Part shown: positions 1 through 60,100 of the stretch, one piece after another
Layout of the letters: every line of letters starts with the position of its first letter
Numbering within the stretch: position 1 is the first letter of the stretch
From: Eledone cirrhosa
Taxonomy: Eukaryota
DNA length: 64,000 nt
Assembly (NCBI GenBank): GCA_964016885.1
Contig: OZ024743.1
Coordinates: forward strand, 145,700,001 to 145,764,000
Direction of reading: 5' to 3'
Notes under the pieces: generated by a model
Seen by the model: only the letters and a program-made list of their open reading frames with translations
Told to the model about the DNA's origin: nothing
Databases searched by the model: none
Made by a program: the position numbers and the translations under genes

Positions 1-137
1 TGATATAGAGAGAAGGCCCATTCACTCGGGCCATTCTCGCCACTTTCACCCACCTTTCATAAAACTTGCTGGGGTACAGCACCTCTCTCTCCATCCTGAT
101 TCTTCTTCCAAAGTGGTATTTGAAAAAAAAGAATCAG
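1..137 (-). mobile_element. Tx1/L1-clade LINE fragment (ORF2 C-terminus), cut by window start
   Basis: Closely matches 14205-14340, the region encoding ...RFYERWVKVARMARVNGPSLYI of the Tx1 copy. Confidence 0.85.
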
Positions 138-10014: not shown

Positions 10015-10460
10015 CTATGATTTCCGCTATAGGCACAAGGTCAGCAGTTTGGGAGGAGTGAAAAGTCGATTACATCGAACCCAGTGCATGACTGGTGCTT
10101 TATTTTATCGACCCTGTAAGGATGAAAGGCAAAGCTAACCTCAACTGGATTTGAACTCATAACGTAAAGGGCCATAACTCTATACCACAAAACTTGTTGT
10201 CCGGCGCTCTACCGATACTGCCAATCAGTAAAAATAACTATAATGGTTTCTTATATAGGCGCAAGGCCACCAATTTTGGGGGAGGAGAAAGTCGATTAAA
10301 ACGACCCCAGTACGTGACTGGTACTTTATTTTATAGACCTCGTAAGGATGAAATGCAAAGTTAGCCTCGGCGGGATTTGAACTCAGATCATAAAGGGTCG
10401 TGATTCTATGCTGCAACGCATGTTGTCTGACCCTCTACCGATACTGCCAATCTACCGCCC
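10015..10460 (-). mobile_element. Two tandem tRNA-derived SINEs
   Basis: Two consecutive bodies (~10015-10224 and ~10240-10460), each with ggatttgaactca and ccgatactgccaat. Confidence 0.85.
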
Positions 10461-13230: not shown

Positions 13231-13934
13231 AAGAGGGTGGACTCTCATAAGAGCAATATCGAATACAAGTCTATCTCCTTATCAATACCTTTTATTGCAT
13301 CAAAAATATTACATAACAACCTTATTACTTAAGCTGCTGTCTGAAGAAGTCGTGTTGGTAATTGCGAGGTCGCAACACCACGCTATTATTAACGCTATAG
13401 AAATACGTGATTATGAATAAAATTATGAATAACTACTAGTCTTCGCATTTTATCAGTATTTTACGTATATTCTGTCGTAAACTACCAAACTTGTCTTTTA
13501 GGAATCTAACACCGTGTTATCTGATCCTGCTATTTCAGTCCCTTTTGTGCTTGCTTATTTTTTTCCAGACATATATTTGCAATCTTTGTGTTCAGCTTGC
13601 TTGTTTGTTTGTCTGTGTGTGGTTTGCAGATGCATTCTGTTTCTTGTGTTGTTCATCTCTTCTGAACGACACCTTGAAGTGTTGTGGCTCTAAACTATGA
13701 TTTCCAGACTTTGGCTACCGAAAAACCGGAAGTTTAGAGGGTCGGCTGAAGATCGAATTTTCCTTATATTCATTTTATCGGTCACGTACCCCAATTTTAT
13801 CCCGCTCCTTCATTCCTTTTTGTTTATATATATTAATGCACACTCACACATACATTCACACATACATATATCTATAGAGAGAGAGGTAGATAGATATAGA
13901 GTTAGATAGCTAGCTAGCTTGATAGATAGATATA

Positions 13935-15530
13935 TTTCTTTTATTTGCCACTAGGGCATCAATAGTGGGACAAGTACAAAGGGGGGAGTTTACACAAAAA
14001 GGCGTCCTCAATAAGGAGGAGGCAATAACAAAATATAAAAATAAAATAAGATATAACAAAAAATAAAATTTTTAACAAAATCCTCAATAGAGAGGAGGCG
14101 CCTTGGGGGGTCGCACACACCCCCGAAAAAAGTGTGCAACCCTTCTCCTCAGGAGCACAGAGAAGGGGTGCTCCCTTGGTCTTTCATCTTCCTCACCTAT
14201 AGTCTGATGTAGAGTGAAGGCCCATTCACACGGGCCATTCTCGCCACTTTCACCCATCTTTCATAGAAACGGCTGGGGTGCAGCACCTCTCTCTCCATCC
14301 TGATCCTTCTTCCGAAATGATATCGGAAGAAACGGACCAGTTGTTGGCCAGAGAGAAAGGTGCCCGACCTCAGTCCTTTCAGACGCGTCCACCATACAAC
14401 CTCTTTCGCCATGGCTATTACGCACAGAAACACCGCCTCTGCTTCATCTTTGAAGGGGGGAGGCGGCTTGATCATTACAATAGACTCGGTGGTCAACCGG
14501 ATCGGTCCCACCCTTGACAGCAGTTGTTCGACATAGCCCCACAGATCGGCTACGCCCGAGCAGTGTACTAATGCGTGTGCAACGGTTTCCTCGTCGCACA
14601 CGCATCTGGGACAGATCTTTTTGGCGGGGTCCCTACCCGGGCGCCCGTGTCTGTAGAGCCTTTCTCGAACGGGTAAAGCCCCTCGGTAGCACTGCCAGGC
14701 CAGGGACTTCTGGAAGTTGTCCATAGGTCCCGGGCTGAATGTCCTACCGAACAGGCTGGCCAGTTCGTCCTCCTCCATGTCTAGGGCTTCTCCGAGGGCG
14801 TCGTCGCACCTGCTGCGTACCAGCCCTCTATAGAATGTTGCGGTGGAGTCTCCACTGATAACCGGATCCGCCTGCCAGAGGGCGGTGAGCGCCTGGGCAC
14901 ACTCAGTGTGCCAGGCGCCCAGTTTTCTCGGTCTTTGCTTGACCCAGGATTGCAGCTCGGTGAGTGAGACGAGTCTGGGAAAGGTTCGTCTCACAAACGA
15001 GGCCCACACCGGTTGTCCGGTGAGGAATACGTAGAGGTGCCGTAGCCTTAATGCGTGTTTACGCATCATTAGCCACGGCATCCCCAGCCCTCCTTTCGAA
15101 GGGTGTTGACAGCAGATGGATCTCCTCACCATAGGAGCCCGCCTCTTCCAAAGGAATTGGAAGAGCGCGCGCTCCATCTTGGTGAGGGTTTCCCTTGGGC
15201 AGGGCACTACGGTCAGGCGGTAGTAGATGACGGACGCTATGTAGGTGTTCGCCACCTCCGCCCGACCTTTCAGGGATAGTTTGCAACTGGCCCACTTCTG
15301 GGTCAGTGCAAACACCCTGTTCGTAACCTCCGCCCAGTTTTTCTCCACCTGGAGGTCCGGTCCGAACCAGACCCCGAGCAACTTCACCGGGCCCTCCGTC
15401 CAGCGTCCGACGACGCCATCGGAGGGCATCGGTCTGCCCCTCCACGTGCCGAGTTGCAAACCGATCGACTTGTCCCGGTTCAGCTTAGCCCCTGTGAACT
15501 TTTCGTACTCCTCCAGTAAGGTGCCGACCG
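13935..15530 (-). mobile_element. 5'-truncated Tx1-clade LINE, copy A
   Basis: Open ORF2 C-terminal half (VKLLGVWF, GGLGMP, CPRC..ETVAHALVHC); 3' UTR ends gtggcaaataaaagaaat into TATC repeats; 5' break also abuts (GATA)n. Confidence 0.9.
14197..15530 (-). CDS. Tx1 ORF2 C-terminal portion (RT thumb, zf-RVT-like CCHC region), uninterrupted
   Basis: Part of ORF 14197..15720; LINE homology starts at VGTLLEEYEKFTGAKLN. Confidence 0.75.
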
Positions 15531-15548
15531 AGATAGATAGATAGATAA

Positions 15549-15622
<74 letters not shown>
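15531..15622 (+). repeat. (GATA)n tract between Tx1 copies A and B
   Basis: Directly visible. Confidence 0.97.
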
Positions 15623-15855
15623 TTCTTTATTTGCCACAAGGGCGGACAAGAAAAGGGGACAATACAAAGACATGCCAGGGATTTTACATACAGTCGTGTA
15701 AAAAATATAAAAACAAACAATTACAAGAATCGAAATCCCCAATAGGGGGGAAGCGTCACAAATGGGTTGTTTAATACCCCGTCGATAGAGCAACCCTCAA
15801 CTCCAGGAGCGTGTTGTGCAAATTCTCCTTTCTTCCTTTTGCTCTCTTCTTCAAC

Positions 15856-18800
15856 CTACAGGCTTATAAACAGAGAAGGCCCAATCACTCGGGCCATTTT
15901 CGCTTCATTCACCCACTTTTCAGTAAATTTACTGGGGTGCAGTGCCTCTCTCTCCACTCTGATTCTCCTTCTAAAGTGATACTTAAAGAAGGGAATCAAT
16001 TGTTGTCCGGAGAAAAAGGCATCTGTCCTCAGTCCTCTCAATCTCGTCCACCATATAACTTCTTCCACCATAGCCACCGTACAGAGGAAAACCGCCTCTC
16101 TTTCGTTTTTGAAAGAGTCTGGCGGTTTGATCCTTACTATGGACTCGGCAGTCAACTGGATTTGTCCCATACGCGACAGCAGTTGTTCTGCGTAGTTCCA
16201 CAGGTCGGTTACGCCCGGGCAGTGTACAATTGCGTGCAGGACTGTTTCAATGTCCTGCGCGCATCTTGGACACGTCCTCTTGGAAGGATCCCTGCCGGGG
16301 CGTCCGTGCCTGTAGATCTTGTCACGAACCGGTAGAGCTCCTCGGTAGCACTGCCAGGCCAGGGACCTCTGGAAGTTGTCCATAGGTCCCGGGCGGGAAT
16401 TCCTACCAAACAGACTGGTGAGCTCATCGTCTTCGACGCCCAGAGTCTCTCCGAGCTCGTCGTCGCCCTTGTAACGTACAATCCCTCTATAGAACGTCGA
16501 CGTGGAGTCTCCACTGATTGCTGCGCCCGCTTTCCAGAGGACTGTGAGCGCCTACAGTGCCCACACTGGTTGGGGGTCGGTGAGGAATACCTGGAGATGC
16601 CGCAGCCTCAGCGCGTGTTTGCGCATCATCAGCCACGGCATTCCCAGCCCTCCGTTTGAAGGGTGCTGACAGCAGACGGATCTCCTCACCAGCGGAGCCT
16701 GCTTCTTCCAAAGGAACTGGAAGAGCATGCGTTCCATCTTGGTGAGGTGTTCACGAGGACAAGGCACGACGGTCAAGCGATAGTAGATGACGGACGCTAT
16801 GAAAGTGTTCGCCACCTCCGCTCGACCTTTCAAGGACAGTTTGCACTCTGCCCACTTCTGGGTGAACGCAAACACCTTGGCCGTGACCTCGTTCCAGTTT
16901 TTCTCCACCTGGAGGTCTGGACCGGACCAGACCCCGAGCAATTACACCGGACCGTCCGTCCAGCGTCCAACGACGCTGTCGGACGTCATCGGTTTGCCTC
17001 TCCACGTACCGAGTTGCAAACTGACAGACTTGTCCGGGTTTAGTTTTGCTCCCGTCAGCGTTTCGTATTCTTTCAGTAAGTTGCTGATCACCCCGATTTC
17101 CGAGGTGCTCGGCACCATTATCGTCACGTCGTCGGCATAAGCCGATGCCGCTTTGCGCAGTCCCGGTTCTAGAGGGATGCCCTGTAACAGCTCCAATTTC
17201 CGCAGTAGTGGCTCTAGAGTCAATACATACAGAATGGAGGAGAGAGGGCACTCCTGTCGAATGGAACGCGTGATTGCGAACGGCTCCGATAGGTAGCCGT
17301 TCACCTTGACCCTCGAGCATATGCTGGTTTTGAATCGCCTCGATCCAGCCTCTGAAAACGGGACCGAAACCGGCCGCCTTGAAGACCTCTTCCAAGTATC
17401 GATGGTAGACCCTATCGAATGCCTTAGACTGATCCAAATTGATCAGAGCCCCACCGAAGCCGGGTTTACTACCCACCCTCTCTATGGTGTATCGCATGAG
17501 GTGGAGGTTGTCGTGTATGGACCTGGTCGGAATTGCATACGTTTGCGCTTTCCCTACCAGGTTCTCGACGACAAGCGCCAACCTCGTCACTAGCACCTTG
17601 GCCAAAATCTTTAACTCTGTGTTGAGCAGATTTATGGGCCTGAAGTTGTTAATTTCGTCCCTCTTGTTCTCGTCTTTCCTGATCAGCGTTACTACCCCCT
17701 TGCCTGCAGAACTGGGAATTCTCCCGTTCTGCTACCAATTGCAGTAGACAGCTTAGATGACCCCAGAGAACAAATCCAGCATGCCTATGTAAAACTCATA
17801 GGGTAGACCATCTAGACCGGGTGACTTGCGTTTCCCGCAGCGACCCAGAGCGTCCCGAATTTCAGTGTCCCTGATCGGTCTTTCGCAGAACTTGGCGTCC
17901 GTGTTCGAGAGACGCGGCAGGCCGTCGAGGTATGAACTAAAGTCCATTGCGCCGTTCGGCTCACCGTCGTTCTGCTCAAACAGTCACGCAAAGTGCTGCT
18001 GAAAGGCCGCGCACATTTGCTTGGCGTCAAGTAGCACGCGTCCGTTTTGGTCTCTCAAAGACCGAATCGTGGACTTGTTGCCACTTTTTGCCTCTGCCAC
18101 TCGGGCCCAGCTGACAGCTTTCGCTCCTTCGTTTCCTAGAGCACGTGTTTTGCTCCTGGCCTTCGTGTTTCGCATCGAAGAACTGGTCCAGTGCCGTTCT
18201 CGACGCTAACACTCTAGCCGCGTTGCCACTTCTAAGTGCCTCCTCTACCTTGGCTACTAGTTCTCTTTCTAGTTTGTTTTTTCTCTAAGGCTAACTCTCT
18301 GCTAAATCCTATCGATTATATTCTAATTGCTTTCTTGAGAGAGTACCACCATCTATTGTTGACGATGGCTCCCGTTAACTGTTGCTTGACTAGTCAACTT
18401 ATCCGTTCACTGTAAGCTTTACGTGCCGGCAACGACACGTTCAGCTTCCAGTATCCGGGTCCTTGTTTATGTGTTCTATCACGGTTGACTAAGCAGACGA
18501 CTAATTTGTGATCTGAATAGGCAACCATGTGCATTCGTTGACAGCTTAACATCTCCTTGTCCCTTTCTCTAATGAAGAACCTATCTAAATACGATCTAGA
18601 TGTCCCGCTGCGGTTTGCCCACGTCCACAGTGGTGCAGTCGGGAAATCCAGTCGATACCTATCGGCCAGTTGGAATCGGCCGATTAAAGTTTTGCGGCTG
18701 TTTCACCCCCACCCCCACCTCCACCTCACCCCACCCCTCTACTGGGACATGCTCCCACATAGTCCTATCGTGCGTCTAGGATACCATTCCAGTCCCCCAC

Positions 18801-19220
18801 TAAAAGTAAGGAGCGAGACGTTCCCAGAAAAGACTCTAGACGCTTAAAGAAGTCTGGCCGTGATTGCGATTGCCCGGTCGGAGCATAAACGGCCACCAGT
18901 CTGAAGGCTCCACCTCCAATACTGTTCACGCCTAGGACTACCAGTCTACTCTCCGGGTCCAAGTGTACTTGCTGTACTTCGACGTCAAGGTTCTTTCGAA
19001 ACATGACAGCCACTCTACCTCCACCTCCTGGCTGACAGAGAGATGCGTAGATCTCAAAGTCGTCGAAGATGGGGGTTAGTTGTTGCCTGTTGTGGATCCT
19101 GGACTCGGTGATGGCTATCACATCCATACCGTGTGACCTAAGGTCGTTTAAAAGTTGGCCCTGTTTCCAGGGCATCCCTAGGCCACGCACATTTACGCTT
19201 CCAACTCGTAAACTAACCAT
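15856..19220 (-). pseudogene. Tx1 ORF2: APE endonuclease, reverse transcriptase, C-terminal zinc finger (disrupted)
   Basis: SVNVRG, IAITES, VYAP, GDWN, SDHK, GPGYWKLN, KSPGLDGLPYEFY, LDQSKAFDRV, RQECPLS, YADD, CPRC..ETVLHAIVHC across frameshifted ORFs. Confidence 0.9.
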
Positions 19221-19261
19221 GTTGGTGAAGAAGAGTTGGAGAAAAAGGACGAAAGGTGCAC

Positions 19262-20828
19262 TTACCTTTTCGTTTCCTGGAGATCGGGTTGTTCAATCTC
19301 CATTTGGGTGCTGGATGGGGTGTTGGGTGGGGTGGGGAAACATTTTAACAGGACGCGGTTGATGGGTTTATGGCAGAGGCTGCCCACGTCCTGTGAAAAT
19401 TTATTTTTCAGGTCATTATAGGTTTCCATAGAAACCCTTATAAGTTTAAGGTGTGGAGACGATTCTGCCTTGACGAAAGTTTTGCCCTCCGTCTCCACCT
19501 TGGAGTTTTGGGAGATGACCTCCATCAAACTCTTGTTGTTTGTGTTGATGTATGCGCATTGTTGTTTGTGTTTTTGTTGTGTTGTTTTAGTTTTTTGTTC
19601 ATCCGGGAGTTTTCTTTTTATGGTGGGTGCTTGTATTTGGGTGGTGTTGGTGTTGGTTTTGCTGGTAGGGGGATGTTTGACTGTGGTGTTGTTTATGTTG
19701 TTGTTTGTGTCTGTGGTTGTGTGTTGGTGTTGGTGATTGGAGTTTTGGGGGCTTTGTGGTGTCTCTTTTTTTGTTTTTTTAGATTTCCACGGCTCTCCCC
19801 CTTCTTCATTTAAAGAAGGAGAAGCAGCTTCATCCGTCGATGAATAATCATCGTCAGGTGTGTGGGGTAGGGTTATGTTGTGTGGTGGTGGTGTTTCGGT
19901 GTGTGTGTTTGTAGTAGTGTTTGAGGGAGTGGGATGGGGTGGGCTGTGTTCTTCAGGGGTGTTGTCTCTGTTTTTTCTGTTGTTGTTGGTTGAGTGTCTG
20001 TTTGTTTTGGTGTGGTTGCTCGTTTCGTCTGTCGTTGTACTTGTGGTGGTGGTGTTGGTTGTTTTGGTGTTGGTGTTGGTAATAGTGTTTTTTTAATGAT
20101 GTTGTTGTTGTGTGTTTGTGAAGGACAAGAGGTTTTTAGGTGTGCTGTGCTACCACAGCGAAAGCAATGAAATTTTCGTCCTTCTACCGAAATGTTTATT
20201 TTGTTGTTATCATCGATGACGACTCTTTCGGGTATTTTGGAGAATCTCTCCGACCTCATTTGCAACAGAGTCTCTAAATCAGTACCCGTCCACCTTTGTC
20301 GAATAGACTTTCGTATCGAAAGAATCATATCAGTTTCTGGCTCTACGAAGCCAGCCAAGATCCACCAGATGTTAATGTTTGGGGGTATATATATTTTTTT
20401 TATTTGTGTCCTTTTTCCCATGTATCTAGGGAAAAAGGTGAATGCTTTTGACACCATTGGTGTCACAGAATATTTTTGGGCGAGTGTCTCGCTTTTAAAC
20501 AGTACTGAAACACTTCCGTACTGTTTTCCTTGTTGGAGTAAATCGATATTTGCTAGAATTTCCTTGAAAGTAGCTTCTATATCTGCTTGGCTAACAAATA
20601 TCAGCTTTCTCGTGGAATTGGACACAGTCCTAAAGGTGACTGATCTTCGAACTGTGTCTTCCTTTAAAGGGGTGAGTTAATTCTAAATCCACCTTTCTCT
20701 TCGAACGTTACAAATTTTCTCCCTTGCTGGAGCATATCTCTTGCATTGGAGATGTCAAGATTTATAAAATCTTGTTTTTTGTTCAGTTTCAGCGAAAGAC
20801 ATTTTCTTTTTTTTTGGTGTGGTGTTGC

Positions 20829-20874
<46 letters not shown>

Positions 20875-21210
20875 ATCGTTATCGTTGTTAGCCTCGGTAT
20901 TGGAAATCTCAGTTCCTTGACGAGGTGAAACATTATGTGTAGATGAATCTGTGGAGTTGTTGATGTCTTTTTCATGTGTATGTATGTTAATAGGTTTAAT
21001 TTCTGTGTTTTCATGTGAGTTAGTGTTATTTTTCTCCGCTTCGGCGGTAGGAATTGTACAATTTTCGAGTGGTAACATTTTTTTCTCTTTGTTGACAGTC
21101 GTATCTATGACAACGTCCATAGTAGCAGAAGCAGATATAACGTTGAAATCTGCCTCTTTCTCTCTATTTTCTCTATTGACGTTCTCCAGCGTTCCCTTCG
21201 TGTTATTCAT
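19262..21210 (-). pseudogene. Tx1 ORF1 (gag-like nucleic-acid-binding protein, disrupted)
   Basis: CFRCGSTAHLKTSC zinc knuckle (CX2CX4HX4C), Asn/Thr/Pro low-complexity linkers; lies upstream of ORF2. Confidence 0.8.
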
Positions 21211-21416
21211 GTTTGCAAAATTTGATATTTTAAAACAATTTTTAAATTAAATTTTCGCCCCTAAAGGGGAGAAAAATGGGATTACTACGCAGCTGACAAT
21301 TCAGCTTGGGGGTTAATCTACAAAATAATATGTTTTTTCAAACAATTTGTTCTGTTTTTCGTATATAAATTTACAAAAAATCTTACCGGCGATGTTTCAC
21401 GCGTCAGACAGAAAGA

Positions 21417-21417
21417 G

Positions 21418-21489
<72 letters not shown>
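21417..21489 (+). repeat. (GATA)n tract between Tx1 copies B and C
   Basis: Directly visible. Confidence 0.97.
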
Positions 21490-22627
21490 TTCTTTATTAG
21501 CCACAAGGGCGCAACAAGAAAGGGGACAATACAAAGACATGCCGGGGATTTTACATACAGTCGTGTAAAAAATATAAAAACAAACAATTTCAACAATCGA
21601 AATCCCCAATGGGGGGGAGGCGCCACAAATGGGTTGTTTAATACCCCGTCGATAGAACAACCCTCAGCTCGAGGAGCGTGTTGTACAAGTGCTCCTTTCT
21701 TCCTTTTGCTCTCTTCCTCAACCTAAAGGCTTATACACAGAGAAGGCCCAATCACTCGGGCCATTTTCGCTTCATTCACCCACCTTTCAGTAAATTTACT
21801 GGGGTGCAGTGCCTCTCTCTCCACCCTGATTCTCCTTCTAAAGTGATACTTAAAGAAGGGAATCAATTGTTGTCCGGAGAGAAAGGCATCTGTCCTCAGT
21901 CCTCTCAACCTCGTCCACCATATAACTTCTTTCACCATAGCCACCGTACAGAAGAAAACCGCCTCTCTTTCGTTTTTGAAAGAGTCTGGCGGTTTGATCC
22001 TTACTATGGACTCGGCAGTCAACTGTATTTGTCCCATACGCGACAGCAGTTGTTCTGCATAGTTCCACAGGTCGCTTACGCCCGGGCAGTGTACAATTGC
22101 GTGCAGAACTGTTTCAATGTCCTGCGCACATCTTGGACACGTCCTCTTGGAAGGATCCCTGCCAGGGCGTCCGTGCCTGTAGATCTTGTCACGAACCGGT
22201 AGAGCTCCTCGGTAGCACTGCCAGGCCAGGGACCTCTGGAAGTTGTCCATAGGTCCCGGGCGGAAAGTCCTACCAAACAGACTGGTGAGCTCATCGTCTT
22301 CGACGCCCAGAGTCTCTCCGAGCACGTCGTCGCCCTTGTAACGTACAATCCCTCTATAGAATGTCGAAGTGGAGTCTCCACTGATTGCTGCGCCCGCTTG
22401 CCAGAGGACTGTGAGCGCCTGAGCGCATTCAATGTGCCAGGCGCCCATCGTTTTCGGTCTTTTCTTCACCCAGGACTGCAGCTCCGTTAGCGAGACGAGC
22501 TGTGGGAAAGCCTGTCTCACAAACGGTGCCCACACCGGTTGGGGGTCGGTGAGGAATACCTGGAGATGCCGCAGCCTCAGCGCATGTTTGCGCATTCCCA
22601 GCCCTCCGTTGGAAGGGTGCTGACAGC
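21490..22627 (-). mobile_element. 5'-truncated Tx1-clade LINE, copy C (same subfamily as B)
   Basis: Near-identical to 15623-16670; 5' break abuts (GATA)n at 22628-22651. Confidence 0.92.
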
Positions 22628-22819
22628 GATAGATAGATAGATAGATAGATATGTGTGTGTGTTTGTGTGTGTGTCTGTCTGTCTGTGTGTGTGTGTATTT
22701 GGAAAATGGCTTACTAAACACTTCAAATCTCTTTTCCTTCTATATTAAATGTTAAACTAATGTATATTTTCATTGTACTGTATCATTTCCCTGTATTGTT
22801 TATCCGTATATTTTCACAT

Positions 22820-38012: not shown

Positions 38013-38791
38013 CTAGCTGACGTACCCAGCTTCGCTCGGGTAAACAGATGATAAGAGAAGACAGGTAAAAGAGAAAATGACTGTATTGGATGTTTGTCTG
38101 GTTACAGTATGAGGCGAGTCCGTGGTGTCTGTGTGATACAAAAAACACTAAAAAAAATCTTCCAGATATACCAGATTCTTCGTTGTACCGTTTGTGCATA
38201 GTATATCAACAATTCTAGGTGCTCCCACCTAGAATAGTGACCTCTAGGAGATGGTTCATCTTCTGCCTGGCTGTAAAACGTGTATCATTGCATAGACGTG
38301 GTTGTAAAAGATGATGATCAGCCAGTTCGTCTTCAACCATCGCAGCACGCCGTCGCTGCTTGGCTCCAGTGTTTCGTTGGCGTTGTTCAGCCAGCTCCTC
38401 TTCATTCATGGCAGCACGTCTTCGCCTCTGAAGTTCGCCGTTCCGATGGCGCTGTTCAGCCCGTTTTTCTTCAATCCTGGCTGCACACCGTCGCCGCTGT
38501 AGTTCACTGTTTGATAAAGTCGAATTGCTTTTACTTTCTGTGGAACGCTGCACGCACGCACACACACATAAACATACGCGCACGTACATACACACGTACA
38601 CATGGTAATAGGTAGAGCGTTCATTTTGCCTCTCTGTTTCTTACTCTCCCATCTCACTCCGTCATTGGCATTATGCATATTAATTTAAGTTTGGCGTCTT
38701 TGAGGTGGGCGGAGTCGTTTGAAACCTATGAACCAATGGTAATCGAGAATTATGACACACGGAATACTGACATTCTTGAAATTAATATATA
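38013..38791 (-). mobile_element. Helitron internal-deletion derivative (unit 2)
   Basis: Same ends as unit 3; CTAG at 38013-38016 joined directly to TC of unit 3. Confidence 0.85.
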
Positions 38792-39651
38792 CTAGCTGAC
38801 GTACCCAGCTTCGCCCGGGTAAACAGATGATAAAAGAAGACAGGTAAAAGAGAAAATGACTGTATTGGATGTTTGTCTGGTTACAGTATGAGCCGAGTCC
38901 GTGGTGTCTGTGTGATACAAAAAACACTAAAAGAAATCTTCCAGATATACCAGATTCTTCGTTGTACCGTTTGTGCATAGTATATGAACAATTCTAGGTG
39001 CTCCCACCTAGAATAGTGACCTCTAGGAGATGATGGTTCATCTTCTGCCTGACTGTAAAATGTGTATAATTGCATGGACGTGGTTGTTCCACGTTTCTTA
39101 AAAGGATGATGGAAGTTCCAATCTTTTATATTATATGTAGATATAGATATAGATAATTAATATAAAAGATGATGCTCAGCCAGTTCGTCTTCAACCATCG
39201 CAGCACACCGTCGCTGCTTGGCTCCAGTGTTTCGTTGGCGTTGTTCAGCCAGCTCCTCTTCATTCATGGCGGCACGTCTTCGCCTCTGAAGTTCGGCGTT
39301 CCGATGGCGCTGTTCGGCCCGTTTTTCTTCATTCCTGGCTGCACGCCATCGCCGCTGTAGTTCACTGTTTGATAAAGTCGAATTGCTTTTACTTTCTGTG
39401 GAACGCTGCACGCATGCACACACACATAAGCATACGCGCACGTACATACACACGCATACATGGTAATAGTTACAGCGTTCACCTAGCCTCTCTGTTTTTA
39501 ACTCTCCCCTTTCACTCCCTCATTGGCATTATGCATATTAATTTAAGTTTGGCGTCTTTGAGGTTGGCGGAGTCGTTCGAAACCTATGAACCAATGATAA
39601 TAGAGAATTATGACACACGGCATACTGACGTTCTTGAAATTAATAAATAGA
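38792..39651 (-). mobile_element. Helitron internal-deletion derivative (unit 1)
   Basis: a|TCtatttattaa at 39651; hairpin + CTAG at 38792-38795. Confidence 0.87.
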
Positions 39652-44436: not shown

Positions 44437-45340
44437 CTGATCAGCATTACTACGCCCCTGCCTGCAGAACTGGGAATTCTCCCGTTCTCCTGCCAGTTGC
44501 AGTAGACGGCTTTGAGGAGGCCAGAGAACAAGTCCGGCATGCCTATGTAAAACTCGTAGAGTAGACCATATAGACCGGGTGATTTGCCTTTCTCGCAGCG
44601 GCCCAGAGCGTCCCAGAGCGTCCCGTATCTCAGTGGCTGTGACCAGTCTTTCGCAGAACTCGGCGTCCATGCTCGAGAGACGCGACAGGCCGTCGAGGTA
44701 TGAACCGAAGTCTATTGCCTCGTTCGGCGCACCGTCGCTCTGCTCGAACAGTTGCGCAAAGTGCCGCTGAAAGGCCGTGCACATCCGCTTGGAGACAGAC
44801 AGATAGGCAGATAGGCAGATAGATAGGTAGATAAATATAGAGTCAGATATATAGACATATAAATGCTGTTTTTATTGCAGGAAAATAGATATTTTCCTGC
44901 AATAAAAACAGCATTTATATGTCTATATATCTGACTCTATATTTATCTACCTATCTATCTGCCTATCTGCCTATCTGTCTGTCTCCAAGCGGATGTGCAC
45001 GGCCTTTCAGCGGCACTTTGCGCAACTGTTCGAGCAGAGCGACGGTGCGCCGAACGAGGCAATAGACTTCGGTTCATACCTCGACGGCCTGTCGCGTCTC
45101 TCGAGCATGGACGCCGAGTTCTGCGAAAGACTGGTCACAGCCACTGAGATACGGGACGCTCTGGGACGCTCTGGGCCGCTGCGAGAAAGGCAAATCACCC
45201 GGTCTATATGGTCTACTCTACGAGTTTTACATAGGCATGCCGGACTTGTTCTCTGGCCTCCTCAAAGCCGTCTACTGCAACTGGCAGGAGAACGGGAGAA
45301 TTCCCAGTTCTGCAGGCAGGGGCGTAGTAATGCTGATCAG
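44437..45340. repeat. ~451-bp-arm palindrome with 2-nt spacer
   Basis: 44437-44887 is the reverse complement of 44890-45340; identical ORFs on both strands in the ORF track. Confidence 0.93.
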
Positions 45341-47504
45341 GAAAGACGAGAACAAGGGGGGCGAACTAAGCAACTTTAGGCCCATAACTCTGCTCAACAC
45401 GTAACTCTGCTCAACTCTGCCCGTGGGAATTTAAAGATTTTGGCCAAGGTGTTGGCAACCAGATTGGCGCTTACTATCGAGTACCTGGTAGAGAAAGCAC
45501 AAACGTGTGCAATCCCGACGAGGTCCATACACGACAACCTCCACCTCATGCGATACATAATAGAGAGGGTGGGGCGTAAACCCGGCTTCGGTGGAGCTCT
45601 GATCAATTTAGATCAGTCTAAGGCATTCGATAGGGTCGACCATCGATACTTGGAAGCGGTTCTCAATGCGGCTGGTTTCGGACCCGTCTTCAGAGGCTGG
45701 ATCGCTGCAATGCACACCAACATCTGCTCGACGGTCAAGGTGAACTGCTACCTATCGGATCCATTCGCAATCACGCGTTCCATCCGACAGGGATGCCCTC
45801 TCTCCTCCATTCTGTACGTGTTGACTCTGGAGCTACTACTGCGGAAGTTGGAGCTGCTGCAGGGCATCCCGTTGAAACCGGGACTGCGGAAAGCGGCGTC
45901 GGCTTATGCCGACGACGTGACAGTAATGGTGTCGGAAACCTCGGAAATCGGGGCGATCGGCAACTTACTGCAGGAATACGAAAGGCTCACAGGAGCAAAA
46001 CTGAACCCGGACAAGTCTGTCGGTTTGCAGCTCGGAACGTGGAGAGGCAAACCGATGCCGTCCGACGACGCTGTCGGATGCTGGACGGACTGACCAGTGT
46101 AATTGCTCGGGGTCTGGTTCGGTCCGGACCTCCAGGTGGAGAAAAACTGGAACGAGGTCACGGCCAAGTTATTTGCGTTCACCCAGAAGTGGGCAGAGTG
46201 CAAACTATCCTTGAAAGATCGAGTGGAGGTGGCGAACACTTTCATAGCGTCCGTCATCTACTATCGCTTGACCGTCGTGCCTTGTCCCCGTGAACACCTC
46301 ACCAAGATGGAACGCATGCTCTTCCAGTTCCTTTGGAAGAAGCAGGCTCCACTGATGAGGAGATCCGTCTTCTGTCAGTACCCTTCCAACGGAGGGCTGG
46401 GAATGCCGTGGCTGATGATGTGCAAACATGCGCTGAGGCTACGGCATCTCCAGGTATTCTTCACCGACCAACCGGTGTGGGCACCGTTTGTGAGACAGGC
46501 CTTCCCGCAACTTGTCTCGCTGATGGAGCTGCAGTCCTGGGTCAAGAGGCGACTGAAGAAGATGGGCGCCTGGCACATTGAATGCGCTCAGGCGCTCACA
46601 GTCAAGCGGGCACAGCAATCAGTGGAGACTCCACTTCGACATTCTATAGAAGGTTAGTACATCACAAAGGCGACGACGTGCTCGGAGAGACTCTGGGCGT
46701 CAAAGACGACGAACTCACCAGTCTGTTTGGTAGGACTTTCCGCCCGGGACCTATGGACAACTTCCAGAGGTCCCTGGCCTGGCAGTGTTACCGAGGAGCT
46801 CTACCAGTTCGAGACAAGATCTACAGACTCGGACGCCCCGGCAGGCATCCAAGAGGACGTGTCCAGGATGCGAGCAGGACATTGAAACTATCTTGCATGC
46901 AATTGTACACTGCCCGGGCGTAACCGACCTGTGGAACTACGCAGAACAACTGCTGTCTCGTATGGGACAAATTCAGTTGACCGCCGAGTTCATAGTAAGG
47001 ATCAAACCGCCAACTTCTTTCAAAAACGAATGAGAGGCGGTTTTCCTCTGTACGGTGGCTATGGTGGAAGAAGTTATATGGTGGACGAGATTGAGAGGAC
47101 TGAGGACAGATGCCTTTCTCTCCGGACAACAACTCATTCCCTTCTTTATTTGCCACTTTAGAAGGATAATCAGAGTGGAGAGAGAGGCACTGCACCCCAG
47201 TAAATTTACTGAAAGGTGGGTGAATGTAGCAAAAATGGCGCGGGTGATTGGGCCTTCTCTGTATATAAGCCTGTAGGTTAAAGAAGAGAGCAAAAGGAGC
47301 ACTTGCACAACACGCTCCTGGAGTTGAGGATTGTTCTATCGACGGGGTATTAAACAACCCATTTGTGGCGTCTCCCCCCTATTGGGGATTTCGATTGTTA
47401 AATTTGTTTGTTTCAATATTTTTACACGACTGTATGTAAAATCCCCGGCATGTGTCTTTGTTTTTTCCCCCTTTCTTGTGCGCCCTTGTGGCAAATAAAG
47501 AAAT
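44985..47504 (+). mobile_element. 5'-truncated Tx1-clade LINE, copy D (subfamily of B/C)
   Basis: LDQSKAFDRVDH, RQGCPLS, YADD and C-terminal zinc finger; 3' end ggcaaataaagaaat; both flanks are degenerate TATC/TGTC repeats. Confidence 0.92.
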
Positions 47505-48010
47505 ATATATGTCTGTCTGTCTGTCTGACTAACTGTCTATCTCCCTTTCTGTCTGTCTGCCCTATCTATCTACCTGCTTATTTAAGCAAATAAAGAAATA
47601 TATCTGACATCCGATCTATCTTTCTACCTAACATTCTCTCTATCAACCTACATATCTACCTATCTATCTACCAACCTACCCGTCTATTTATCTGTTTGAC
47701 TCTCTATCTATTGCTATCTATTTATGTATGTTTACTAATGTATCTATCTTCAGACAATAATAACAACTATAAAACACAAATCACAGTAGTACAGTCTGAA
47801 GATAAATAGATACGCAGGTAGAACAAAACCATTATTGTAATTATTGTGATTGATTTAAATTAATGTAGAATGAAATACGATGATGGCCGAAGTCACAAGA
47901 GCGAGAAAGTCAAAGAAGACTCGAGAATTCATGCATCCTTACATAGAATTTTGTAATCAAGAAATTATCAAATTAAATCTTTTTTTTTGCTATATATATA
48001 TATATTTAAA

Positions 48011-57112: not shown

Positions 57113-60100
57113 CCATGCCTGTAGAGTTGGAAAGACCACTTACCAGCAAATTGTTGGGAAGGGAGCACTTCCCTCTCCACCCTGATTTTCCTTTTCAAAT
57201 GAAATTTGAAAAAGTTAACCAGGCATCACCGAAGAGGTAAGTGCTCGTCTTCAGCCCTTTCAAACGCGTCCACCACGCGCAAATGCTGCAGCGCAGTCAG
57301 GCGAGGCTTAGGACAAGGCTCGGCGGTCAGGCGGTAGTAGATGACGGACGCGACTTACGCGTTCGCCACCTCCGCTCGACCTTTCAAGGATAGCTTCCCC
57401 TCAGCCCATTTTGGGGAGAGAGGCCACCCTGCACATCAACTCGTGCCAGTTTTTTGCCCGTCTGGAGGTTCGGACCGAACAATTTAACCGGTCCGTCCGT
57501 CCAGAACCCGACGACGCTGTTGGACGGCCTGGACCTGCCTCTCCAGGTGCCGAGCCGCAGGCCTGCCGACTTTTCCTGATTAATCATTGCTCCTGTCACC
57601 GCCTCGTATTCTCTTAGTGTAGTGACGATCGCCTCGATATGTTTGGTACTCGACACCACTACGGTGACGTCGTCGGCATATACTGACACGGTTCTCCCGC
57701 ATCCCAATTCGCACGGGATATCCCTCAACGTCTCCAGTTTGTGCAGTAATGGCTCGAGATCAATACGTACAAAATGGACGAGAAGGGACATCCTTGGCAA
57801 CTGAGCGCATGATGTTGAACGGTTCCGAAAGGTGACCGTTCACTCTAACCACAGAACAGATGTCGCTGTGCATGGCAGCGATCCAGACTCTGAAGACGGT
57901 CCAAAGCCGCCCGCCCTCAGGCCCACCGCCAGATAACGATGGTCGACACTATCGAAATCTTTCGACTGATCTAAATTGATCGGAGCCAGGTTCGTTAGCT
58001 ACCTGTGCCAGGTTCGTTAGCTACACTCTCCACGATGTATCGCATGAGGTGGAGGTTGTCGTGGATGGATCTGTCTGGAATGGCACATGTCTGCACCTCT
58101 CCCACCAGACCACTGACGACTGGCGCCAACCTCTTTACTAGCACCTTGGCCAAAATCTTGAACTCTGCGTTTAGCAGAGTTATAGGCCAGAAATTTCCTA
58201 TGTTCTCCCTCATGTTCGGGTCCTTTCTCAGCAGCTTTACCGCTCCTCGGCTCACAGAGCTGTGAATTCTCCCGTTCTGCGGCCAATTGCAGTAGACGTC
58301 CGCCAAGAGGTCGCAGGACAAGTCTGGCATGTGTACGTAAAGCTCGTAGGGCAGACCATCCAAACCAGGCGTTTTACCCATCGTGCAGTCAGTCATTGCT
58401 ACCCGTACTTCAGCAGCTGTTATCGGCTTTTCGCAACACTCCGCCTCAATCGCCGAGAGCCGCTGTAGACCGTCGAGGTAGGCACTAAAGTCCATCCTGC
58501 GATCCGACCCACCGCTGCCCCCTAACAGCTGAGGGTAGTGCCGCTGAAAAGCTGCACACATTTGCCCGGGTTCAAGTTACATGTGCCCGTTGTGGTCCTC
58601 CAACTCGAGGCTTTGTTGCCACGACGCGCCTCCGCCACATGGGCTCATCGAACGATTCTCGTTCCCTCGTGTCTGAGAGCAACCGCACTCGCTCTGACAA
58701 CGCAGCGTTCGTGATTTGCGTTGAATAATTGGTTGAGGGCCAATCTCGCCGCAAGTACGTCGGTCGCGATGCCTTTACTAAGCGCCTCGTCTAATTTTCT
58801 AAATCGTTCTCCCTTTGCTCTATTTTTCTCTATTGCTAACGCCTTACTAAACCTAATCGTCTCTATTCTAATCACCTTTTTCAGGGCGAACCACCATTTG
58901 TTGTTGACGACTGCCCCCGTCAACGCCCACTTAACTAGTTCGCTATTCCGGTCTCTGTAGGCTTTGCGCGTTGTCAGCAACGCGTTTAGCTTCCATTTGC
59001 CGGGTCCCTGTCTATGAAGCCTATCTAAGTCGACTACACAGATCACGAATTTGTGGTCCGTGTAGTCGACTATCTTGAATTGCGACAACCTATGCTAGAA
59101 CTATCTACTTCCTTACAAAATACTCTATCTAGATACGATCTGGATGACCCGATGCGGTTTGTCCATGTCCACATTGGTACATTCGAGAAATCCAGTCGGT
59201 ATCTGTCAGACTGTTGGAAACTTCTGAGCAGGTTTGTGAGGCTTTTACACCCTCATTCCCTATCCGCTGATCCTACACAATCTCAGCGTGCATCCAAGAT
59301 CCCGTTCCAATCGCCCACTAACATTAAAGAGCAGGAAGTTCTCTAGTCGCCTGGAGAAATCAGACCGCCCTGCCCCTGTCGGAACATAAACAGCCACTAG
59401 CCTAAAAGCATAGCCTTCACTGCTGGTCACGTCCAGCACCACCAACTTACCTTCTGGGTCCAGGAAGATTGTCCGTATCACGAGATCCAGACCTCTCCGA
59501 AACACAGCGCCTCCACCTCCCGATCCCAGCCGGTTTGGAGATGCGCACACATCGTAACCGCCGAAGATGGGTGCGAAGGCATGTGCCTCTGAAATTCTGC
59601 TCTCGCTGATGGCCACTACATCTATGTTCATTGACCTGAGATCGTTGAGCAGGTGACCCTGCTTCCATGACAACCCCAGGCCGCGTGCATTTATGCTGCC
59701 TATTCTGAGTAAGCTCATGTTGAAAAGAAGTGGGAAAAGATGGGAAAGACTACTTACCTCAGTTCTTGTGGAGAAAGCATGGTTTTTCCGTCATTCTGAC
59801 TATTTGTGGTCCTCTCCGGAAGGATGTCTTTATATATCCTTTTGGAAAGTGTTTGCCGGAAATCTCTGATGTCCTTCGGGAATTTTTCTTTAGGGCTGTG
59901 TATGTTTTCTGTGAGATAAATGTGATTTGTATGTGTGGCTGGTATGAATTTTGCGGTTGTTGTGTTGTTTTCCTCTGTGATGCTGGTGTTGTGTTGGATG
60001 TAGTGTAATAATTGTTTATTGTCATGCTTAATGCCGTGAAGTGTTTCGTTTTGGTCGTTTTGTTGCGTTGTTGTGGTTGCACGTGTGGGTTTGTTTCTGT

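Follow-up and report, generated by a model that had tools for sequence, protein, structure and literature searches.

The window analysed here, i.e. the whole 64,000-nucleotide stretch of Eledone cirrhosa contig OZ024743.1 (positions 145,700,001 to 145,764,000, forward strand), contained a head-to-tail stack of three long interspersed elements (LINEs), copies A, B and C, all on the minus strand. The A-B and B-C spacers consisted of nothing but (GATA)23 and (GATA)21, which read as (TATC)n in the sense of the elements, and GATA-type repeats were also present at both outer ends of the stack. Sequence reading, TRF, a repeat finder and BLAST against a full-length relative were concordant on this arrangement and confirmed what had been described in an earlier reading of the DNA made from its letters alone (hereafter the sequence-only reading), namely three copies in the same orientation split only by (GATA)n. 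As developed below from genomic copies, these LINEs, which apparently belong to the L1/Tx1 group, share a single orientation within the (TATC)n/(GATA)n microsatellites that hold them, and very likely choose this repeat as integration target.

The features of the stack and of a fourth copy, D, are gathered in Table 1. Copy D was found on the plus strand, so that the same orientation held for copies A to C only; its 5' truncation adjoined a repeat, as had been claimed, this repeat being of a degenerate TATC type, while the truncation point had to be moved from 44985 to 44980. For copy A, identity was 77.9% with the B-type reference, 75.7-83.2% with copy B and 98.4% with the last (3') 1.6 kb of an element located elsewhere in which both open reading frames (ORFs) were open. 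Copy B was 91.7-96.1% identical to the reference, its reading frames were broken and ~100 bp present in other copies were missing near 16552-16554. Pfam searches on pieces of copies B and A detected Exo_endo_phos, RVT_1 and zf-RVT. Each copy of the stack ended in GTGGC(A/T)AATAAA(A)GAAA, followed by two variable bases and TATCTATC, and the terminal motif running into tatctatc was recognized in 4/4 copies, D included; the conservation of this terminal box in differing subfamilies, already perceived in the sequence-only reading, was upheld.

Table 1. Features of the LINE stack, of copy D and of their flanking repeats (window coordinates; APE, apurinic/apyrimidinic endonuclease; RT, reverse transcriptase; UTR, untranslated region)
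Feature	Position	Strand	Support
C-terminal piece of ORF2 from a subfamily-A-like copy, interrupted at the window start	1..136	-	BLAST, 87.5% to copy A positions 1199-1326
Degenerate (TATC)n in minus-strand reading (GATA on plus), 3' flank of copy A, outer stack end	13880..13934	-	
Copy A, 5'-truncated, subfamily A; ORF2 C-terminus with zf-RVT, 3' UTR and terminal box	13935..15530	-	
(GATA)23 on plus strand, (TATC)n in element sense, between A and B	15531..15622	-	TRF, 23.0 copies, 97% matches
Copy B of subfamily B, full length (5.79 kb), with frameshifts; 5' UTR reaching 21412	15623..21412	-	
Copy B, 3' box	15623-15690	-	
Copy B, zf-RVT piece	15856-16551	-	
Copy B, RT pieces	16751-17731 and 16942-17442	-	
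Copy B, APE piece	18765-19292	-	
Copy B, ORF1 region with CX2CX4HX4C knuckle in 19873-20676	about 19262-21246	-	
(GATA)21 between B and C	21406-21489		TRF, 96% matches
(TATC)n array and CTCTCTT linker immediately upstream of the copy B 5' end	21413..21489	-	
Copy C, 5'-truncated, subfamily B	21490..22627	-	94.0% to reference; 93% to copy B over 300 nt compared
(TATC)6, (GATA)6 on plus, immediately upstream of the copy C truncation point, then (CA)n-type repeat; other outer stack end	22628..22651	-	
Degenerate TATC/TGCC/TGTC compound repeat immediately upstream of copy D	44936..44979	+	
Copy D, 5'-truncated, B-like, 86.6% to reference	44980-47502	+	BLAST
Copy D 3' flank: TATATA, (TGTC)n, then degenerate TATC units; mini-copy of the 3'-terminal ~20 nt at 47583-47606	47504..47700	+	

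Related copies were gathered from the genome of the window (3.0 Gb), which was searched with 238 nt of the copy B 3' UTR and 200 nt of the copy B 5' end. Each probe yielded about 825 candidates, of which the best 40, all at least 95% identical, were scored; removal of the window's own match and of three overlapping loci left 39 non-window 3'-anchored and 36 5'-anchored loci (designated by L numbers). Fourteen of the 39 3'-anchored copies were full length, the remainder ending at many different internal points, and together with the 36 5'-anchored copies they provided 50 full-length 5' ends. A 5' end was counted as positive when at least two tandem TATC units occurred within 24 nt upstream, and the background was estimated on 20 random 10-kb stretches of the same genome taken at seeded random positions.

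Sense TATC was displayed by 46 out of 50 full-length 5' ends and antisense TATC by none (0/50), while the same criterion was satisfied by 362 of the 399,040 (position, strand) pairs of the random stretches (0.09%); no BLAST match to the family was found in these 200 kb. The 3' flanks displayed sense TATC in 31/39 cases and antisense TATC in 0/39. Copies truncated at different internal points adjoined TATC as well (window copies A, C and D; L005, L014, L017, L021, L024, L025, L032 and L037), and the length of the upstream tract varied from 0 to 33 units among the 5' ends. According to the operational criterion of Kojima, target specificity is recognized when one sequence type occurs in >20% of the flanks (PMC4494074). 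By this measure the family is microsatellite-specific, with 46/50 5' and 31/39 3' flanks in these samples of best-scoring matches. The proposal of the sequence-only reading, in which the repeat serves as a target beyond forming a 3' tail, was therefore sustained in the genomic samples: it was to be abandoned if most solo copies had non-GATA 5' flanks, and the sampled full-length 5' flanks were mostly TATC.

Junctions were base-precise and strand-specific, and this held likewise for full-length copies, truncated copies and several subfamilies. At least five subfamilies displayed a 3' end of the form GAAA-NN-(TATC)n in one register, with NN typical of the subfamily; the last ~60 nt were conserved across them and the rest of their 3' UTRs was divergent. 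Within subfamily B, a GGCA/GGCT variant tracked the start of the tail, ATCT or ATATATCT (counts 14, 5, 3 and 12; Fisher p = 0.005). The first bases after the 3' box (GAAA-NN-TATC) were thus inherited with the element lineage and, since the tail start tracks an internal variant and NN tracks the subfamily, these first 'repeat' bases appear to be copied from the element RNA. On the 5' side, typical junction strings were TCTCTT, TT, TA and TC before TCTG(C/T)CTGACGCG. Among the 42 5' flanks having a perfect TATC run, 40 had T as the first base after the last such run, which indicates a fixed phase, ...TATCT.

The two copies with both ORFs open, L128 and L129, lay in a stack on contig C1 (see below) and encoded an ORF1 of 470 or 442 aa and an ORF2 of 1145 aa. 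Both were members of subfamily A, their nucleotide sequences being 98.4% and 94% identical to that of window copy A, and their open frames suggest that this subfamily was recently active. None of the 19 long B-type copies displayed an open ORF2, the longest piece reaching 662 aa; over their last 900 nt, B-type copies showed a mean pairwise identity of 95.1% (31 copies). A look-up of RNA entries for the 3' part of copy B listed none. The AATAAA of the 3' box was considered as a possible means of placing RNA cleavage inside the downstream repeat, which was retained as a loose idea only, off-array copies being without poly(A).

The association was also apparent when approached from the target side. 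The (TATC)8 pattern yielded 65,199 plus 61,949 overlapping matches in the genome, of which the first 23 arrays along contig C1 were taken with 600 nt on each side, the first 17 (CATA)8 loci serving as control. Matches to the ORF1 or ORF2 of the family (tblastn) adjoined 15/23 (TATC)8 arrays versus 0/17 (CATA)8 arrays (Fisher p = 1.3e-5). As L119-L122, four of the positive arrays, formed one locus, the per-locus count is 12/19. A majority of the long TATC arrays sampled thus harboured such an element. Inspection by eye indicated that arrays L100, L103, L105, L106, L111 and L118 had a LINE on their downstream side only; as their upstream sequence was unrelated, they are not tails of an upstream copy. 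A single antisense-type junction was seen, in L104 (C1:5361407-5362658), where a TATC array adjoined the reverse complement of a LINE 3' end without the terminal AATAAAGAAA; it is probably a rearrangement.

Head-to-tail stacks were common. The 3' end of another copy was located just upstream of 19/50 full-length 5' ends by motif search, and of 14/36 printed flanks by eye. The most developed example, C1:22,191,510-22,214,368 (L118-L129), displayed five arrays of 8-17 units at 5.4-5.8 kb spacing, separating four full-length copies of different subfamilies, and no LINE was found in the 10 kb on either side of it. With a large share of long GATA/TATC arrays being LINE junctions, such arrays can be used in annotation of this genome as marks of nested LINE stacks. 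Mini-copies composed of just the last 17-30 nt (…GC(A/T)AATAAAGAAA…) were also encountered in or beside TATC tracts, at window 47583-47606 and in the flanks of L036, L049 and L062; they look like the products of a reverse transcription halted almost at once.

A few copies lay outside arrays. L003 was located in AT-rich DNA without any TATC unit and was flanked by a duplication of at least 8-9 nt, while L004 was found where TATCT occurred just once, its duplication, TATCTTATGGCGATGCC, measuring 17 nt; after GAAA, both carried just ATATATCT(A) before the target-site duplication. Target-site duplications of 8-17 nt were recognized in L003, L004, L006, L021 and L022, those of L004, L021 and L022 starting with TATCT. 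L006 and L022 had inserted into the 1-2-unit tail of a resident copy. Because off-array copies bring just 1-2 units, and because several arrays have a LINE downstream only and unrelated sequence upstream, the long arrays were not brought by the element, which supports the view that they are split by insertion rather than made by it. The statement of the sequence-only reading that each insertion regenerates a target can therefore be kept in a modest form, as short 1-2-unit tails were later hit by L006 and L022.

As judged from their sequence features, the elements are retrotransposons of the APE type that lack long terminal repeats (non-LTR), with APE followed by RT in one ORF, variable 5' truncation, target-site duplications and no terminal repeats. 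In the 1145-aa ORF2 of L128, Pfam detected Exo_endo_phos (27-227, E = 2.4e-7, above cut-off) and RVT_1 (512-755, E = 3e-24), together with a zf-RVT at 976-1032 whose 25.1 bits were slightly below the cut-off of 27.5 (27.0 bits in window copy A). ORF1 displayed one CX2CX4HX4C knuckle (Pfam zf-CCHC, E = 0.0027, 18.2 bits, below the cut-off of 20.8) and no RNA recognition motif (RRM) detectable by Pfam. The closest solved relative of ORF2 was human L1 ORF2p (E = 1.9e-46 over residues 7-857; PDB 8sxt, 8uw3 and others); R2 proteins matched it at about 1e-18, and no match to the endonucleases of R1Bm or TRAS1 was obtained at E <= 0.01. A HMMER library search returned 40,726 matches at E <= 1e-3, the best full-length ones being 42-44% identical. 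The closest named relative of the open ORF2 was a hypothetical protein of Argonauta hians (63% identity), in keeping with an octopod host, and no Tx1- or L1-labelled protein was found among the relatives from protein searches with ORF2 and the look-up of 10 matches. The single-sequence model of the L128 endonuclease domain was unusable (mean pLDDT 36.3).

The C-terminal Cys-His motif and the proximity to L1 ORF2p support membership of the L1/Tx1 group, within which placement in the Tx1 clade is plausible. In the parts of the mollusc surveys that bear on the subject, L1-group LINEs are given as L1-Tx1 or Tx1, and L1 proper is not among them (PMC10294476); 13 recently active L1-Tx1 families are tabulated for O. 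vulgaris (PMC13282606 Table 1). Tx1 ORF1 proteins are described as Type I-like, with RRM and/or CCHC zinc-knuckle combinations (PMC5203782).

A mechanism by target-primed reverse transcription can be proposed by analogy with SART1Bm/TRAS1Bm and R1Bm (PMC7265360). Transcription of a source copy would run on into the repeat behind it, giving the element RNA a terminus of one or a few UAUC units, and an array would be nicked by the endonuclease on its GATA strand. The freed ...GATA-3' end could then pair with the UAUC tail and prime cDNA synthesis, whereby both orientation and register would be fixed. Insertion would split the array in two and, as both half-arrays would remain targets, later insertions would pile up head to tail. 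A rare off-array insertion would leave 1-2 TATC units, which might themselves become targets later. Comparable requirements are reported for the model elements: accurate initiation of reverse transcription by R1Bm depends on the presence of downstream target sequence in its RNA (cited in PMC7265360), and SART1Bm needs at least three TTAGG units, its endonuclease being taken as the main determinant of target choice (PMC7265360).

A more ambitious version, possible although we tend to doubt it, would be a self-renewing partnership between a lineage of at least five subfamilies and one microsatellite, in which the landing site would be copied in RNA as UAUC and would serve for homing, arrays would be split and new ones would be seeded at off-target sites. 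If so, the LINE and its microsatellite would co-amplify and the homing tag, being RNA-borne, would be reprogrammable in principle.

Several points weigh against the choice of the microsatellite as target or restrict its reach. The flank counts derive from a sample and not from a census, and some of the sampled loci duplicate one another and were counted separately (L013/L019; L011/L033, with a common 3' flank). Four of the 50 full-length 5' ends lacked TATC: the surroundings were (TC)n for L010 and L048, AT-rich for L041 and (AAAT)n for L049, the latter adjoining an apparent mini 3' end. Nine of the 25 non-full-length copies (L002, L009, L035, L013, L019, L023, L026, L028 and L034) were set aside as ambiguous, since their BLAST boundary reflected divergence of the 5' region, a rearrangement inside the copy or an interruption; among the 16 clean truncated copies only half (8/16) had two or more perfect units in phase in the 60 nt upstream (9/16 with the looser 24-nt criterion). 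Considering all non-ambiguous copies, at least two units were present on at least one side in 26/30 and on both sides in 17/30. The fold of the 3' box was a weak 8-pair hairpin (-4.14 kcal/mol). As to the mechanism, we infer what tail the RNA carries, where the nick is made and in which order the events follow. Finally, both flanks of L018 were composed of (TCTG)n, with a 19-nt duplication within (TCTG)n, and window copy D was similarly located in (TGTC)n (47510-47559); the specificity may therefore be looser (TNTC), or the target of a subfamily may have shifted.

Among the rival explanations, the best surviving one is that RNA-DNA pairing alone would set the target, nicking being loose, or pre-existing nicks being used in a fragile microsatellite, of which only those exposing ...GATA-3' would prime on UAUC. 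The position of L003 in an AT-rich site without TATC unit would agree with this, as nicking elsewhere is then possible; so would the templating of the tail start by the element and the annealing of a short target-like RNA proposed for SART1Bm and R1Bm (PMC7265360). However, the duplications starting with TATCT and the ...TATCT phase at 40/42 junctions suggest sequence-selective cleavage of both strands, and target choice in those site-specific APE LINEs that have been characterised is set primarily by the endonuclease (PMC7265360, PMC4494074), so that this explanation is considered unlikely.

Far less room is left for the repeat being the element's own 3' tail, generated by slippage of the reverse transcriptase, with random insertion and stacks arising from tails between neighbours. 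Each copy was indeed followed by at least ATCT or ATATATCT, and microsatellite tails are common in LINEs (PMC10294476). A tail would nevertheless not account for sense TATC at 46/50 full-length 5' ends versus 0.09% expected, nor for its presence next to truncated copies; off-array copies had tails of just 1-2 units, and arrays with a LINE downstream only had unrelated sequence upstream. We regard this origin as highly improbable. An equally poor prospect is that the upstream TATC tract would be a repetitive 5' end of the element, carried by full-length RNA, and not target DNA. The tract was commoner at full-length (13/14) than at truncated copies (8/16), and a CTCTT-type linker was recurrent at the 5' junction of several subfamilies; yet copies truncated at many different internal points also adjoined TATC, and the tract ranged from no unit at all to 33. 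The least credible alternative is passive association, either by co-accumulation in low-recombination regions, as is most likely the case for Drosophila Waldo-A and Waldo-B near CA repeats (PMC3812793), or by stacking through tandem duplication or unequal crossing-over, for which segmental duplicates among the sampled loci (L013/L019) could be invoked: it is contradicted by the base-precise junctions, by strand biases of 46:0 (5') and 31:0 (3'), by stacked copies of differing subfamily and truncation point, by the lack of a LINE at all 17 CATA arrays (0/17) and by zero family matches in 200 kb of random sequence.

Taken as LINEs that choose TATC arrays, the present elements can be compared with known systems. 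Human L1 ORF2p displays the same APE-then-RT order; unlike the LINEs described here, L1 uses poly(A) for priming at loose TTTT/AA sites and shows no microsatellite specificity. ORF1 carries a CCHC knuckle here, which mammalian ORF1p is not known to possess. SART1Bm and TRAS1Bm belong to the R1 clade, as do Waldo and Mino, while Dong belongs to the R4 clade and possesses a restriction-like endonuclease rather than APE. Microsatellite-targeting LINEs described so far comprise Waldo (ACAY), Mino (AC), Kibi (TC), Koshi (TTC), Dong (TAA), crocodilian Tx1 elements (TTCC/TTTC), Togen (TG) and some HERO families (PMC3812793, PMC4494074, PMC4640811). A handful of motifs are known for those of APE type, and the basis of their specificity is described as poorly understood (PMC3812793).

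The closest parallels are Kibi on (TC)n and Koshi on (TTC)n in teleosts and the crocodilian Tx1 elements on (TTCC)n/(TTTC)n, which, like the present ones, are L1/Tx1-group APE LINEs favouring one microsatellite motif, a habit again common to several related families (PMC4494074, PMC3812793). Their motifs are composed of pyrimidines only and their hosts are vertebrates, in contrast to the TATC tetranucleotide and the mollusc host encountered here. SART1Bm and TRAS1Bm of the silkworm, targeting (TTAGG)n, likewise insert strand-specifically in a short tandem repeat of which few units are enough, and the 3' region of their RNA contains a short target-like sequence able to pair with the nicked strand (PMC7265360), a feature for which a counterpart is proposed above. 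They differ by poly(A) at the junction and by their telomeric location, whereas here poly(A) is absent, the repeat directly follows the conserved GAAA-NN and the microsatellites are interstitial. Dong (TAA)n, Waldo (ACAY)n, Mino (AC)n and Togen (TG)n are also microsatellite-specific non-LTR elements, with other motifs and from other clades (PMC3812793, PMC4640811); Togen is related to NeSL and uses a restriction-like endonuclease, in contrast to the APE found here.

No LINE specific for GATA, TATC, TCTA or AGAT was found in the full-text literature searched, Repbase Reports, subscription journals and supplements being outside its scope; the sequence-only reading, which knew of no described GATA-specific family, agrees with this. 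Octopus repeat papers mention L1-Tx1, and no target is given in the passages concerned. TATC/GATA is therefore likely a new target motif, and mollusc a new host, for a habit known from fish and crocodilian LINEs. The family thus adds a non-homopyrimidine tetranucleotide to the targets and a mollusc to the hosts. It also constitutes an unusually rich natural data set, in which several subfamilies have one target in common, copies number in the hundreds, off-target events come with target-site duplications, and mini-copies, stacks and copies open in both ORFs occur. These data would allow the contributions of the endonuclease and of the RNA tail to be separated at the bench. Its main value, of moderate interest, resides in offering a rich natural system on how APE LINEs choose microsatellites.

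Among the sampled loci, L013/L019 and L011/L033 formed pairs with common flanks or internal rearrangements, which points to segmental duplicates or to insertions into copies of one repeat. The flanks of L011 and L033 beyond the array were 88% identical over 262 bp. A second TATC-seeking element was envisaged in this shared flank and rejected, most other matches corresponding to a common SINE-like (short interspersed element) repeat.

Copy D was associated with a near-perfect palindrome (window 44437-45340, centre about 44888), in which 44437-44797 was an inverted copy of 44980-45340. It covered the 5' junction and the first ~360 nt of the copy, the degenerate TATC tract being mirrored about an AT-rich centre, and may stem from an inverted duplication or from an artefact of the assembly. 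At 57311-59691, on the minus strand, lay a distant LINE of this group, with 67.8% identity to the B-type reference over 2.4 kb. The remainder of the window displayed a SINE-like repeat at 10028-10452, presumably octopus-like, with a 226-nt unit in 1.9 tandem copies; dispersed copies of it were numerous both across the window and among the loci retrieved. Also present were (ACT)70 near the window start (254-463) and a 69-nt tandem repeat in two blocks ~900 nt apart (38318-38505 and 39229-39363).

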